Virus record (IMG/VR): IMGVR_UViG_2531839178_000014
Reading direction: 5' to 3' (one strand)
DNA length: 12,772 bases
From: a virus
Lineage: Duplodnaviria > Heunggongvirae > Uroviricota > Caudoviricetes
This document shows, one piece after another, positions 3,887-11,491 of this stretch. The translations under genes and the position numbers were made by a program. Position 1 is the stretch's first letter. Every line of letters starts with the position of its first letter. The notes under the pieces are model-generated. The model ran no database searches, was not told the DNA's origin, and saw only the letters and a program-made list of their open reading frames with translations.

Positions 3887-4390
3887 TCACCATTGGTATT
3901 GGTTCTTCCGTAGAAGAGCTTCGCGAGATAAGGAGCAAACTTGTTGAGATGCGTTATGGTGTTGCTGCTCCTCACTTTTTGGTTGCACCGGAGGAGTAAC
4001 CGCGCCAGTTAACAGCCACATCGGATCGCAGCCAAGAATATTTGCCAGTGGGATAAGCATACTGATAGTTGGTTCATACTCTCCGCTCTCCCACTGGATG
4101 ATGACTTCTTCATCGAGATCGAGCAGCCTGGCGAGTTCGGCGGTTGTTAAGCCGCAGGCTTCGCGTTGGGTGCGAAGACGGTTGTTGATTGCAGAATTTT
4201 TGTTCTGTAAAAGCATTGCTGACGATAGCTTTCTGGATATGCTATTTGTCATATCCCATGCCAGTCCTGCGCATGACTCTATATCGCTAGAGAGCGTAGC
4301 ATCTGGTGTTGCTTTTGCTATTAGTGTAATGAGGCTGCCGAGGTTTTTCAGTTCTTCGAGACAGTCAAGAGTTGTAGCTTTATTGATCAT
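3887..4390 (-). CDS. XRE-family helix-turn-helix DNA-binding protein (167 aa) with an extra N-terminal segment
   Basis: Central HTH_XRE-like segment INNRLRTQREACGLTTAELARLLDLDEEVIIQWESGEYEPTISMLIPLANILG. The 5' end is uncertain (internal Met codons at 4252 and 4216 lack an SD). Confidence 0.65.
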   Translation of the reverse strand: MINKATTLDCLEELKNLGSLITLIAKATPDATLSSDIESCAGLAWDMTNSISRKLSSAMLLQNKNSAINNRLRTQREACGLTTAELARLLDLDEEVIIQWESGEYEPTISMLIPLANILGCDPMWLLTGAVTPPVQPKSEEQQHHNASQQVCSLSREALLRKNQYQW

Positions 4391-4421
4391 GAGATGATAC
4401 CCCAGTTACGAACTTTGTTTC

Positions 4422-4450
4422 ATGGTAACTAAGGCATCAAAGCATGGCAA
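4422..4450 (-). promoter_or_regulatory. candidate sigma70 promoter for the HTH gene (-35 TTGCCA, 17-bp spacer, -10 TACCAT on minus strand)
   Basis: Hexamers read directly from the sequence; a TTGATACTTTGG motif copy lies just upstream at 4458-4469. Confidence 0.3.
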
Positions 4451-4486
4451 GTAGTTTTTGATACTTTGGTTTCTTTTTGTATCTGG

Positions 4487-5143
4487 TCAGAAAATATCCC
4501 ACCTGGCATCAACCACAACACCTACTATTTCGCAATCATTGTCCATTTCTATGATGGGATATTGTGGATTAAGGGGCTTTAGAAACGCCTTCCCCATTTC
4601 AGAAATATATTTTTTGAATGTTGCTTCATTGGTGGATTTTTTTCTGGCGATGACGTAACACCCTGAAAAAACTTCTTTATCTGGATTGACAAGGATCGAC
4701 ATTCCTTCAGGAAATGTTATTCCTATAGGCGAAGTCATTGAGTCTCCGTGTACTTCCAGCCAGAAGCCCCTCTCACCAGCGTATTTTACAGAATGCCTCC
4801 AATTATCCTGATCATACATGTTGTAGTCATCACCTGCAGTTGCGAATAATCCTGCCTGAACCCAGTTAATTACAGGGTAAGAGTGTGCTGTGTCTCTCTG
4901 GGGACAGCTCTTAACATTATTTTCCCAATACTTACCTTTTTCATCTCCGTTCTGAAGCCACTGCGGTGAACACTGCAGTGCCGCTGCGACTTTAAAAAGC
5001 GTGTCACCGTTGAAACTTTTTGTAAGACCTTGCTCGGCTTTACTGATTGCAACTCTGGTGACCCCAGCTTTTTTAGCCAACGCATCTTGCGTTAACCCAG
5101 CTTTTTGTCGTGCGTTGATGAGGCGTTCACCTAAAGATTTCAT
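4487..5143 (-). CDS. CI-like phage repressor: N-terminal XRE HTH plus C-terminal LexA/S24 peptidase domain (218 aa)
   Basis: HTH LGERLINARQKAGLTQDALAKKAGVTRVAISKAEQG; Ala-Gly site (VQAGLFATAG); GDSM serine motif and a downstream Lys (ARKK). SD AAGGAG precedes ATG 5143. Confidence 0.85.
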   Translation of the reverse strand: MKSLGERLINARQKAGLTQDALAKKAGVTRVAISKAEQGLTKSFNGDTLFKVAAALQCSPQWLQNGDEKGKYWENNVKSCPQRDTAHSYPVINWVQAGLFATAGDDYNMYDQDNWRHSVKYAGERGFWLEVHGDSMTSPIGITFPEGMSILVNPDKEVFSGCYVIARKKSTNEATFKKYISEMGKAFLKPLNPQYPIIEMDNDCEIVGVVVDARWDIF

Positions 5144-5189
5144 TTTTCTTCTCCTTTCATGGCTGCTGATACTAAAGTAACAGAATGTC

Positions 5190-5218
5190 TTGATACTTTG
5201 GATTCTCATGTTTAACAT
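5190..5218 (+). promoter_or_regulatory. candidate rightward promoter (-35 TTGATA, 17 bp, -10 TAACAT) in the repressor/Cro-like intergenic region
   Basis: Hexamers read from sequence; overlaps the second TTGATACTTTGG motif copy. Confidence 0.3.
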
Positions 5219-5254
5219 TCTTGGATAACAGAGTATCCGGTGTGAGGCTAAAGA

Positions 5255-5464
5255 ATGACCCTTTATGAAATATTAAAAACTCAATTTAAAACCAATGCCG
5301 CTATTGGCCGCAGGTTCCCAAAGAAAGGAAAGCCTCGTGGTAGTCAGGGAGTTGGAAAGTGGAAAACGCGGGGCGTTCCGGAGGATGTTGCCATTCTCTG
5401 CCATCTGGATCCGAACATTCCATATACACATCCAAGCTTAGCGCACACAGAGGATGAGAAGTGA
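5255..5464 (+). CDS. small basic protein (69 aa) divergent from the repressor; positional Cro analogue
   Basis: ORF with SD GTGAGG 7 nt upstream. Assigned by position only; no clear HTH recognised. Confidence 0.45.
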   Translation: MTLYEILKTQFKTNAAIGRRFPKKGKPRGSQGVGKWKTRGVPEDVAILCHLDPNIPYTHPSLAHTEDEK

Positions 5465-5527: not shown

Positions 5528-5597
5528 AATCACATTAGGCTGTGTCCCTTAATCATCTGAGCTATAGTAACTGTCTGTTTACACAACATATTGAACT

Positions 5598-6047
5598 ATG
5601 GCTCGCTACGACCTTCCCGATGAGGCATGGACCATCATCAAGCCCCTGTTACCTCCTGAACCCGCCACACCACGGGCCGGACGCCCATGGGCTGAGCACC
5701 GTAAAATCATCAATGGCATGTTCTGGGTGTTATGTTCCGGTGCACCATGGCGCGATTTACCCGAACGATATGGGTCATGGAAAACTGTTTATAACCGCTT
5801 TAACCGATGGTCAAAGTCAGGCGTGATTAATATTATTTTCAACAGGTTGCTTTCGCTACTTGATGCAAACGGCTTTATTGACTGGTCTGCCACCGCGCTG
5901 GATGGCAGTAATATCCGGGCGCTGAAATGTGCCGCCGGTGCTCAAAAAAACATCCCGATATCGACGGAGATAATGGGCTGGGTCGCTCTCGCGGCGGTTT
6001 TGGCACCAAAATCCATCTGGCAACAGACGGAAGTGGCCTCCCGTTAA
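5598..6047 (+). CDS. IS5-family transposase ORF1 (N-terminal DNA-binding part)
   Basis: 149-aa ORF MARYDLPDEAWTIIKPLLP...WRDLPERYGSWKTVYNRFNRW. Confidence 0.8.
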   Translation: MARYDLPDEAWTIIKPLLPPEPATPRAGRPWAEHRKIINGMFWVLCSGAPWRDLPERYGSWKTVYNRFNRWSKSGVINIIFNRLLSLLDANGFIDWSATALDGSNIRALKCAAGAQKNIPISTEIMGWVALAAVLAPKSIWQQTEVASR

Positions 6048-6442
6048 ATATCGTGCTAAGCCCCGGACAAGCTCATGAAAGCCAGTTCGCGCAACGACTT
6101 CTGGACGGGATTGGCGTTCAGCGTCAGAACGGCAGCATGAAACGCCGTGGACATGCGGTACTGGCTGATAAAGCGTATTCAGGGCGCGCATTGCGCAACG
6201 AGCTGAAAAATAACGGTATAAAGGCAGTAATCCCCCGAAAGTCAAATGAGAAAATGGCATCGGATGGACGTGCACAGCTTGATCGTGATGCGTACTGCAA
6301 TCGTAATGTCGTTGAACGGTGCTTTGGGCGGCTGAAAGAATATCGCCGCATCGCCACGCGTTACGACAAAACGGCGAGAAATTACCTGGCGATGGTGAAA
6401 CTGGGCTGCATCCGACTCTTTTATCAACGCTTACGTAATTAA
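5927..6442 (+). CDS. IS5-family transposase ORF2 (DDE catalytic part), -1 frame relative to ORF1
   Basis: 171-aa ORF ...GGFGTKIHLATDGSGLPLNIVLSPGQAHESQ...; overlaps ORF1 by about 120 nt. Confidence 0.8.
   Translation: MCRRCSKKHPDIDGDNGLGRSRGGFGTKIHLATDGSGLPLNIVLSPGQAHESQFAQRLLDGIGVQRQNGSMKRRGHAVLADKAYSGRALRNELKNNGIKAVIPRKSNEKMASDGRAQLDRDAYCNRNVVERCFGRLKEYRRIATRYDKTARNYLAMVKLGCIRLFYQRLRN
5944..5950 (+). promoter_or_regulatory. A7 slippery run (A AAA AAC in the ORF1 frame), candidate programmed -1 frameshift site fusing ORF1 and ORF2
   Basis: The frames were checked: ORF1 reads GAQKNIP and ORF2 reads CSKKHPDID over the same A-run. Confidence 0.5.
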
Positions 6443-6452
6443 GGGACACAGC

Positions 6453-9617: not shown

Positions 9618-9943
9618 TGAGGTAGCCTGAGTTTAACGGACACTCCTTCCTGAAATAGAATGGCATCAGAAGGAGCTAATAATGAGCAGAAAAACCCAAC
9701 GTTACTCTAAAGAGTTCAAAGCCGAAGCTGTCAGAACGGTTCTTGAAAATCAACTTTCGATCAGTGAAGGCGCTTCCCGATTATCCCTTCCTGAAGGCAC
9801 TTTAGGACAATGGGTTACCGCCGCCAGAAAAGGGCTCGGTACTCCTGGCTCCCGCACGGTGGCTGAACTGGAATCTGAAATTCTGCAACTGCGTAAGGCG
9901 TTAAATGAAGCTCGCCTTGAGCGAGATATATTAAAAAAGCAAC
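9618..9943 (+). mobile_element. IS911-like 5' segment (IRL plus OrfA up to the A-run), 326 bp, abutting the IS30 IRL
   Basis: Near-identical to the reverse complement of 2532-2858 except that the A-run is A6 rather than A7. OrfA (9682-9948) therefore reads ...DILKKQL* into IS30. Confidence 0.85.
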
Positions 9944-11164
9944 TGTAGATTCAATTGGTCAACGCAACAGTTATGTGAAAACATGGGGTCGCGGAGGTTT
10001 TTTGAATGAGACGAACATTTACAGCAGAGGAAAAAGCCTCTGTTTTTGAACTATGGAAGAACGGAACAGGCTTCAGTGAAATAGCGAATATCCTGGGTTC
10101 AAAACCCGGAACGATCTTCACTATGTTAAGGGATACTGGCGGCATAAAACCCCATGAGCGTAAGCGGGCTGTAGCTCACCTGACACTGTCTGAGCGCGAG
10201 GAGATACGAGCTGGTTTGTCAGCCAAAATGAGCATTCGTGCGATAGCTACTGCGCTGAATCGCAGTCCTTCGACGATCTCACGTGAAGTTCAGCGTAATC
10301 GGGGCAGACGCTATTACAAAGCTGTTGATGCTAATAACCGAGCCAACAGAATGGCGAAAAGGCCAAAACCGTGCTTACTGGATCAAAATTTACCATTGCG
10401 AAAGCTTGTTCTGGAAAAGCTGGAGATGAAATGGTCTCCAGAGCAAATATCAGGATGGTTAAGGCGAACAAAACCACGTCAAAAAACGCTGCGAATATCA
10501 CCTGAGACAATTTATAAAACGCTGTACTTTCGTAGCCGTGAAGCGCTACACCACCTGAATATACAGCATCTGCGACGGTCGCATAGCCTTCGCCATGGCA
10601 GGCGTCATACCCGCAAAGGCGAAAGAGGTACGATTAACATAGTGAACGGAACACCAATTCACGAACGTTCCCGAAATATCGATAACAGACGCTCTCTGGG
10701 GCATTGGGAGGGCGATTTAGTCTCAGGTACAAAAAACTCTCATATAGCCACACTTGTAGACCGAAAATCACGTTATACGATCATCCTTAGACTCAGGGGC
10801 AAAGATTCTGTCTCAGTAAATCAGGCTCTTACCGACAAATTCCTGAGTTTACCGTCAGAACTCAGAAAATCACTGACATGGGACAGAGGAATGGAACTGG
10901 CCAGACATCTAGAATTTACTGTCAGCACCGGCGTTAAAGTTTACTTCTGCGATCCTCAGAGTCCTTGGCAGCGGGGAACAAATGAGAACACAAATGGGCT
11001 AATTCGGCAGTACTTTCCTAAAAAGACATGTCTTGCCCAATATACTCAACATGAACTAGATCTGGTTGCTGCTCAGCTAAACAACAGACCGAGAAAGACA
11101 CTGAAGTTCAAAACACCGAAAGAGATAATTGAAAGGGGTGTTGCATTGACAGATTGAATCTACA
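9944..11164 (+). mobile_element. IS30, copy 2 (1221 bp)
   Basis: Same terminal repeats as copy 1. Flanked by AC on the left and GT on the right, which are reverse complements rather than a direct repeat. Confidence 0.9.
10006..11157 (+). CDS. insI: IS30 transposase
   Basis: 383-aa ORF identical in protein sequence to 1318-2469. Confidence 0.9.
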   Translation: MRRTFTAEEKASVFELWKNGTGFSEIANILGSKPGTIFTMLRDTGGIKPHERKRAVAHLTLSEREEIRAGLSAKMSIRAIATALNRSPSTISREVQRNRGRRYYKAVDANNRANRMAKRPKPCLLDQNLPLRKLVLEKLEMKWSPEQISGWLRRTKPRQKTLRISPETIYKTLYFRSREALHHLNIQHLRRSHSLRHGRRHTRKGERGTINIVNGTPIHERSRNIDNRRSLGHWEGDLVSGTKNSHIATLVDRKSRYTIILRLRGKDSVSVNQALTDKFLSLPSELRKSLTWDRGMELARHLEFTVSTGVKVYFCDPQSPWQRGTNENTNGLIRQYFPKKTCLAQYTQHELDLVAAQLNNRPRKTLKFKTPKEIIERGVALTD

Positions 11165-11491
11165 GTTGCTTTTTTTAATATATCTCGCTCAAGGCGAGCT
11201 TCATTTAACGCCTTACGCAGTTGCAGAATTTCAGATTCCAGTTCAGCCACCGTGCGGGAACCAGGAGTACCGAGCCCTTTTCTGGCGGCGGTAACCCATT
11301 GTCCTAAAGTGCCTTCAGGAAGGGATAATCGGGAAGCGCCTTCACTGATCGAAAGTTGATTTTCAAGAACCGTTCTGACAGCTTCGGCTTTGAACTCTTT
11401 AGAGTAACGTTGGGTTTTTCTGCTCATTATTAGCTCCTTCTGATGCCATTCTATTTCAGGAAGGAGTGTCCGTTAAACTCAGGCTACCTCA
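11165..11491 (-). mobile_element. IS911-like 5' segment (IRL plus OrfA up to the A-run), 327 bp, inverted, abutting the IS30 IRR
   Basis: Matches 2532-2858 (A7) with one substitution (A at 11260 versus G at 2627). OrfA from ATG 11427 reads into the IS30 end (track ORF 11077-11427). Confidence 0.85.

Follow-up and report, generated by a model that had tools for sequence, protein, structure and literature searches.

The 12-mer TTGATACTTTGG occurs on both sides of a gene for a CI-like repressor in a 12,772-bp stretch of prophage DNA (the whole stretch analyzed, hereafter the window), and this raises the question of whether the repeat serves as an operator and, if so, which of the DNA-binding proteins encoded nearby would recognize it. 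The initial annotation had regarded the repeat as a candidate binding site for the CI-like repressor and/or the XRE (HTH) protein encoded next to it, and had suggested that the repressor controls a downstream cargo operon as well as the lytic promoter. By sequence identity, the window corresponds to the immunity region of an E. coli prophage of the phiP27 type. It was 99.9% identical to the chromosome of E. coli O121, with matches in 341 of 5426 complete E. coli genomes, 95% identical to the Stx2e phage phiP27, and approximately 84% identical to several Stx1a- and Stx2a-converting phages.

The genes of the immunity region are listed in Table 1, together with the other features discussed below. 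The repressor is 98% identical to phiP27 L11, and some Stx1a and Stx2a phages carry a CI of about 93% identity. Its N-terminal domain is of the P22/434 type, not the lambda type, and its C-terminal domain matched that of lambda CI (E 2.5e-33) in an alignment in which VQAG, GDSM and FKK are retained; Ala97-Gly98, Ser135 and Lys177 were assigned via the alignment to lambda CI. Because the leftward genes past cI in intact phiP27 run on to xis and int, the genes called a downstream cargo operon correspond to the early-left (PL) operon. In the 167-aa protein encoded by the first gene of this operon, HTH_3 is preceded by a conserved N-terminal domain of unknown function that spans about 65 aa. Homologues of this protein are 215-216 aa long in L102 and Stx2_12E129, and a second HTH copy is present in L102 (gene from 1522 onward). 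The gene lies where lambda and P22 carry the N/gp24 antiterminator gene, and no N-like gene was seen. On the other side of cI, the 69-aa protein at the cro position showed no significant sequence match in Pfam, NCBIfam or PDB. Its family comprises 42 homologue clusters, all from Enterobacterales, and in 40 of these the best local alignment was at least 64% identical. AlphaFold gave an unusable model from the single sequence (pLDDT 56.6), and one with pLDDT 90.6 when 38 homologues were supplied. In this latter model, an unusually long basic loop (FPKKGKPRG) lies between the putative HTH helices.

Insertion elements lie around the immunity region. An inverted repeat of about 1.56 kb, 100% identical between 1299-2858 and 9618-11176, flanks a 6.76-kb segment with the immunity region. 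The repeat was detected as two arms, 1244 and 321 nt long, that adjoin each other, with an extra 321-bp copy at 11171-11491, and it consists of an element with an IS30-like transposase (HTH_38 and rve, 383 aa) inserted into an IS3-family element; an IS-mediated inversion or a composite structure could account for this layout. Similarity to the O121 prophage stops at about 5538, followed by an IS4/IS5-family transposase region (about 5540-6450) with two overlapping ORFs, DUF4096 (5598-6047) and DDE_Tnp_1 (5927-6442). This insertion lies directly downstream of the cro-position gene and splits PR from the remaining early-right operon.

Table 1. Genes, candidate promoters and predicted operator sites of the immunity region (positions in the window; site centers are given relative to the inferred promoter starts)
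Feature	Position	Core	Strand	Sequence or product	Center	Remarks
cI repressor gene	4487-5143		-	218 aa; N-terminal HTH_3, C-terminal Peptidase_S24		
cro-position gene	5255-5464		+	69 aa; orphan family phrog_4749		Divergent from cI
First gene of leftward operon (XRE/HTH gene)	3887-4390		-	167 aa; C-terminal HTH_3		Directly downstream of cI
PR candidate	5190-5218		+	TTGATA (5190-5195), 17 bp, TAACAT (5213-5218)		Consensus scan; upstream of cro-position gene; inferred start ~5225
PL candidate	4450-4422		-	TTGCCA (4450-4445), 17 bp, TACCAT (4427-4422)		Consensus scan; upstream of HTH gene and early-left operon; inferred start ~4415
OR3	5167-5182	5168-5181		TGATACTAAAGTAACA	PR ~-50	One mismatch to GATAC-N4-GTATC; nearest cI; upstream of PR
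OR2 (second 12-mer copy)	5191-5206	5192-5205		TGATACTTTGGATTCT	PR ~-26	Consensus half contains PR -35 TTGATA; site covers -35 and spacer
OR1	5223-5238	5224-5237		GGATAACAGAGTATCC	PR ~+5	One mismatch; over predicted PR start region
OL site c (first 12-mer copy)	4459-4474	4460-4473		TGATACTTTGGTTTCT	PL ~-51	One mismatch; upstream of PL
OL site b	4424-4439	4425-4438		GGTAACTAAGGCATCA	PL ~-16	Overlaps PL spacer and -10, whose first three bases are the half-site end
OL site a	4395-4410	4396-4409		TGATACCCCAGTTACG	PL ~+12	Two mismatches; in 5' leader of HTH gene, overlapping its Shine-Dalgarno

The repeat itself was confirmed. Exact copies of the 12-mer are present at 4458-4469 and 5190-5201, both on the plus strand; the 17-mers that contain them, TTGATACTTTGGTTTCT (4458-4474) and TTGATACTTTGGATTCT (5190-5206), are identical at 16 of 17 positions, and the related CTGATACT was found at 5166-5173, at the OR3 site. 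When matches with up to two mismatches were counted over the whole window, the 12-mer was unremarkable, with three matches against 1.18 expected and an equal count in 23 of 200 shuffles. This whole-window count was replaced by tests restricted to the intergenic DNA and by a dyad model. An exact word of at least 12 nucleotides common to both intergenic regions flanking cI (96 and 111 bp) arose in 12 of 5000 composition-preserving shuffles, indicating that the shared 12-mer is unusual in this setting.

We found that the 12-mer is not the predicted functional unit but a consensus half-site plus the spacer of a dyad of 14-16 bp, with the consensus (T)GATAC-N4-GTATC(A). Six such predicted dyads flank cI, three on the cro-position side (OR) and three past the cI stop (OL), and the two copies of the 12-mer belong to two of these six. 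With up to two mismatches, GATAC-N4-GTATC has seven sites in the 12,772 bp, five of them inside the 207 intergenic bp around cI, and all three one-mismatch sites of the window fall within the same 207 bp. In a blind enumeration of all 5-mer dyads with spacers of 0-8, GATAC-N4 ranked top, with five intergenic matches versus two elsewhere, and the entries ranked next were frame shifts of this motif. Since the consensus was derived from the regions later scored for enrichment, the within-window p-values are optimistic, and the cross-genus data described below serve as the independent test. Every predicted operator combines one consensus half with one weaker half, like the operators of the lambda type. 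The sites are spaced 24 bp (OR3-OR2) and 32 bp (OR2-OR1) apart on one side of cI, distances kept in all relatives, and 29 bp and, from site b to site c, 35 bp apart on the other. OL site a repeats site b almost exactly in inverted orientation, and is restricted to the relatives with the HTH gene, those of E. coli and Providencia. OL site b of the window departs from GTATCA in its consensus half, where a T-to-C change at 4435 gives GCATCA. This C is unique to the window, as 27 of the 28 other distinct OL variants read GTATCA and one reads GTGTCA; such a change may have weakened the operator in a prophage that is decaying.

The predicted sites are closely associated with the two candidate early promoters. 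In agreement with the initial annotation, the second copy of the 12-mer overlaps a σ70-like -35 element, that of PR, and the first copy lies just upstream of a candidate promoter of the HTH gene: OL site c begins 18 bp past the cI stop, and 8 bp separate it from the -35 of PL on the minus strand. As the centers of the sites relative to the inferred starts differ, the two copies occupy non-equivalent promoter positions, the second over the -35 and spacer of PR and the first about 51 bp upstream of the predicted PL start. Equivalents of both promoters were seen in the relatives. At the same position as PR and with the same 17-bp spacing, Klebsiella, Salmonella and Providencia have TACTAT, TAGTAT and TAAATT, respectively, as -10. 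The PL equivalents, read directly from the sequences of the relatives, begin with TTGCAC, TTGCGA or TTGACA and, after 17 bp, continue with TAC-N-N-T. A second promoter-like match on the minus strand, ATGAAA-18-TATCAT (4423-4394), was discarded, as its start would lie at or past the ATG of the HTH gene. For the repressor gene itself, the consensus scan passed no minus-strand promoter in 5144-5254. The best candidate for PRM found by eye is GTATCA-16-TAGTAT on the minus strand, with the -10 inside OR3 and the -35 inside OR2. OR3 thus probably overlaps the putative PRM; since the -35 of this candidate lies within OR2, it fits poorly with activation in the style of lambda.

A motif search across homologous immunity regions, which the initial annotation had proposed as a check, showed that the motif is conserved across four genera and shifts with the CI recognition helix in Serratia. 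Within the immunity type, we compared 25 distinct OR variants and 29 distinct OL variants. Invariant columns made up 47 of 60 half-site positions versus 28 of 106 other intergenic positions (Fisher p 8e-11, a value that treats related sequences and neighboring columns as independent). The divergent relative L105, whose CI is 86% identical to that of the window, has a perfect GATACTTTAGTATC at OL site c, and OR1 of Stx2_12E129, also divergent, is the perfect palindrome GATACTTAAGTATC.

More distant prophages of Klebsiella, Salmonella and Providencia were located through homologues of the 69-aa protein. Their repressors are 66%, 74% and 63% identical, respectively, to that of the window, and the helix-turn-helix AGVTRVAISKAE(Q/L)GLTK is identical in all four. 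Each of the three prophages has three OR dyads with spacings of 24 and 32 bp, as in the window, and the OR2 14-mer GATACTTTGGATTC shows no difference among these three genera and Escherichia. On the OL side, a pair of dyads at a distance of 34-35 bp surrounds the PL -35 in Klebsiella and Providencia; for Salmonella the scan listed a single OL match, and the site-c position was assigned by eye. The Serratia repressor is 50% (BLASTP) or 53% (MAFFT alignment) identical to that of the window and has the recognition helix SRMAISKIEMG, as compared with TRVAISKAEQG in the window. At the corresponding positions, the Serratia relative has TAAAC-N4-GTTTA; its cI is flanked on either side by perfect copies of this dyad, and its outer OR sites are 56 bp apart, the same distance as in the window. 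Thus, across these prophages the predicted operator sequence tracks repressor specificity, being the same with an identical helix-turn-helix and changed with an altered recognition helix.

These comparisons suggest that the six dyads are very probably operators bound by the prophage CI, as parts of a switch of the lambda/P22 type. The proposal that the repeat is an operator is supported for CI by its conservation in four genera and its covariation with the CI helix, and the XRE protein is an unlikely binder. The possibility that the 167-aa XRE/HTH protein binds the dyads instead of CI appears highly improbable. This protein does carry an HTH_3 domain, and OL site a lies in the leader of its own gene and occurs in no relatives other than those with that gene, which could mean autoregulation. 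Nevertheless, OL site a fits the same consensus as the other five sites, and between the window and L105 the identity of the HTH protein falls to 65% with the dyads and the CI recognition helix unchanged. The relatives in Klebsiella, Salmonella and Serratia have no 167-aa homologue downstream of cI, yet they keep OL dyads and all three OR dyads. Since the dyads persist without the XRE gene, CI is likely to be the protein that binds them, probably along with the 69-aa protein at the cro position.

The 69-aa Cro-position protein was also considered as the protein that selects the dyads, with CI binding elsewhere. It co-occurs with the motif in each genus examined, and its AlphaFold model is all-alpha, with Cro and YdaS-type proteins as the best structural neighbors, although these matches are weak (E 0.13-3.5, TM about 0.5-0.65). 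As every relative examined encodes both this protein and CI, co-occurrence cannot tell which of the two binds. The change of half-site in Serratia, however, is accompanied by evident changes in the recognition helix of CI, whereas residues 30-40 of the Cro-like protein, which cover AlphaFold helices, vary equally among genera that share one operator sequence, and we regard sole selection of the dyads by this protein as very unlikely. In the characterized lambdoid switches, CI and Cro use the same operators, so the Cro-position protein is more likely a complement to CI than an alternative, and by this analogy it probably shares the CI operators. An explanation of the repeat without any operator function, by its similarity to a -35 (TTGATA) combined with chance or by an RNA or terminator element after cI, seems extremely unlikely. 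The 12-mer was indeed non-significant by the whole-window count, and its second copy includes a -35, but the first copy has no -10 after it and is oriented away from PL, and the six sites with their cross-genus conservation and covariation go beyond chance. For the RNA element, GATAC at 4460 and GTATC at 4480 of the window could pair as a 5-bp stem. This reading of the first copy was rejected, as no terminator-like site was found in 4300-5300, Rfam gave no family match, and conservation is missing for the GTATC at 4480, where phiP27 and most variants carry an insertion.

Assigning the dyads to CI places this system beside the well-characterized switches of phage P22 and lambda. The P22 repressor binds six sites of rotational symmetry whose central bases it does not contact (PMC4267663). 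P22 C2 is 45% identical to the CI of the window over 211 aligned residues, nearly the full length. In our scan, P22 showed TTAAG-N4-CTTAA cores with OR spacings of 23 and 25 bp, that is, the same 5-4-5 geometry with an A/T-rich center, and, like the window, it has six sites, of which three lie between the divergent repressor and cro genes. Two OL sites of P22 are 35 bp apart and bracket the PL -35, like sites c and b of the window, and, by position, OL site c corresponds to the OL site that P22 has upstream of its PL -35. The geometry is common to both, whereas the half-site sequence is not, being TTAAG (ATTTAAG) in P22 and GATAC in the window, so the two types should be heteroimmune. Judged from these features, the system of the window is a relative of the P22 system with a different immunity. 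Further differences from P22 are the OR1-OR2 spacing (32 bp in the window, 23 bp in P22), the additional site downstream of the PL start in the window, the lack of sequence similarity between the cro-position protein and P22 Cro (BLASTP gave no alignment), and the first gene behind PL, which encodes the HTH_3 protein in the window and the gp24 antiterminator in P22.

The overall logic is also that of lambda, to which the CI C-terminal domain is homologous, with the Ala-Gly, Ser and Lys kept. In both, cI is flanked on either side by operators that pair a consensus half with a weaker one. In contrast, the N-terminal domain of the window CI is unlike that of lambda, the dyads are 14-16 bp as compared with 17 bp, and the site spacings differ as well. 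Unlike lambda, the window lacks rex genes between cI and OL, and the OL-OR distance is therefore only about 730 bp. The Stx-associated lambdoid prophages 933W and H-19B have CI operators at PL and PR, like the type studied here, and the number of operators varies among Stx phages, with three OR and two OL sites in 933W and four OR sites in H-19B (PMC8065619). The 933W-type CI is only about 36% identical to that of the window, and its immunity specificity differs. Our literature search found no mapping of phiP27-type operators and no binding, footprint or transcript data for phiP27-type immunity, and a search with the motif strings returned unrelated eukaryotic papers only. The operator sequence of this immunity group therefore appears to be undescribed in the literature searched. 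The architecture is that of the textbook lambda/P22 switch, and conceptually it adds nothing to that paradigm.

From these data we propose the following mechanism. CI, a homologue of P22 C2 with an SOS-cleavable S24 domain, would bind as a dimer to the (T)GATAC-N4-GTATC(A) dyads. In the lysogen, CI on the OR and OL clusters would block PR and PL and thereby silence the rightward and leftward early operons, and RecA-stimulated autocleavage of CI in the SOS response would free both. Control of both the leftward and the lytic promoters by CI, as envisaged in the initial annotation, is thus favored by the comparative evidence, with the leftward target being the canonical early-left PL operon rather than a cargo operon. 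Since the CI C-terminal domain is homologous to that of lambda, cooperativity and looping between the OL and OR clusters, about 730 bp apart, are possible. In the OR of lambda and P22 the sites are 23-25 bp apart, a range that the spacings of the window (OR, 24 and 32 bp; OL, 29 and 35 bp) do not follow, and hence pairwise cooperativity in the style of lambda cannot be assumed.

The arrangement of OL sites b and a also allows a further, rather doubtful idea, namely that in phiP27-type E. coli prophages these two sites may act as operators in DNA and, when transcribed, pair as the two arms of a hairpin. In RNA read through from cI on the minus strand (4396-4440), sites b and a would form a stem of 15 bp plus four outer pairs (dG -35.2 kcal/mol, z -3.9), which would bury the Shine-Dalgarno sequence and AUG of the 167-aa HTH gene. 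The stem was 99.6% paired in 16 variants, with three one-sided wobble changes, and no compensatory double substitutions were found across these variants. No intrinsic terminator was detected between the cI stop and OL in the E. coli phiP27-type prophages (4470-4486 in the window); the Klebsiella, Salmonella, Providencia and Serratia relatives (L121, L123, L125 and L107) have a GC-rich hairpin and T-run after cI (GCCGG...CCGGC-T8). If the idea is true, the hairpin would hold the early-left operon untranslated in lysogens despite a cI gene without a terminator. Because the predicted PL start falls in the hairpin loop, transcripts from PL would escape the structure. Such a hairpin would resemble the fold-back inhibition of the IS10 transposase.

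Taken together, the analysis gives a probable operator consensus and a map of six sites for one immunity group. Members of the group are phiP27 (Stx2e), several Stx1a- and Stx2a-converting phages and the prophages found in 341 of the 5426 E. coli genomes, and relatives occur in other Enterobacterales. The map offers targets for studies of Stx-prophage induction and for the prediction of homoimmunity. In addition, the half-sites TTAAG of P22, TAAAC of the Serratia relative and GATAC of the phiP27 type form a natural series within one repressor family, in which recognition by the helix-turn-helix may be compared.
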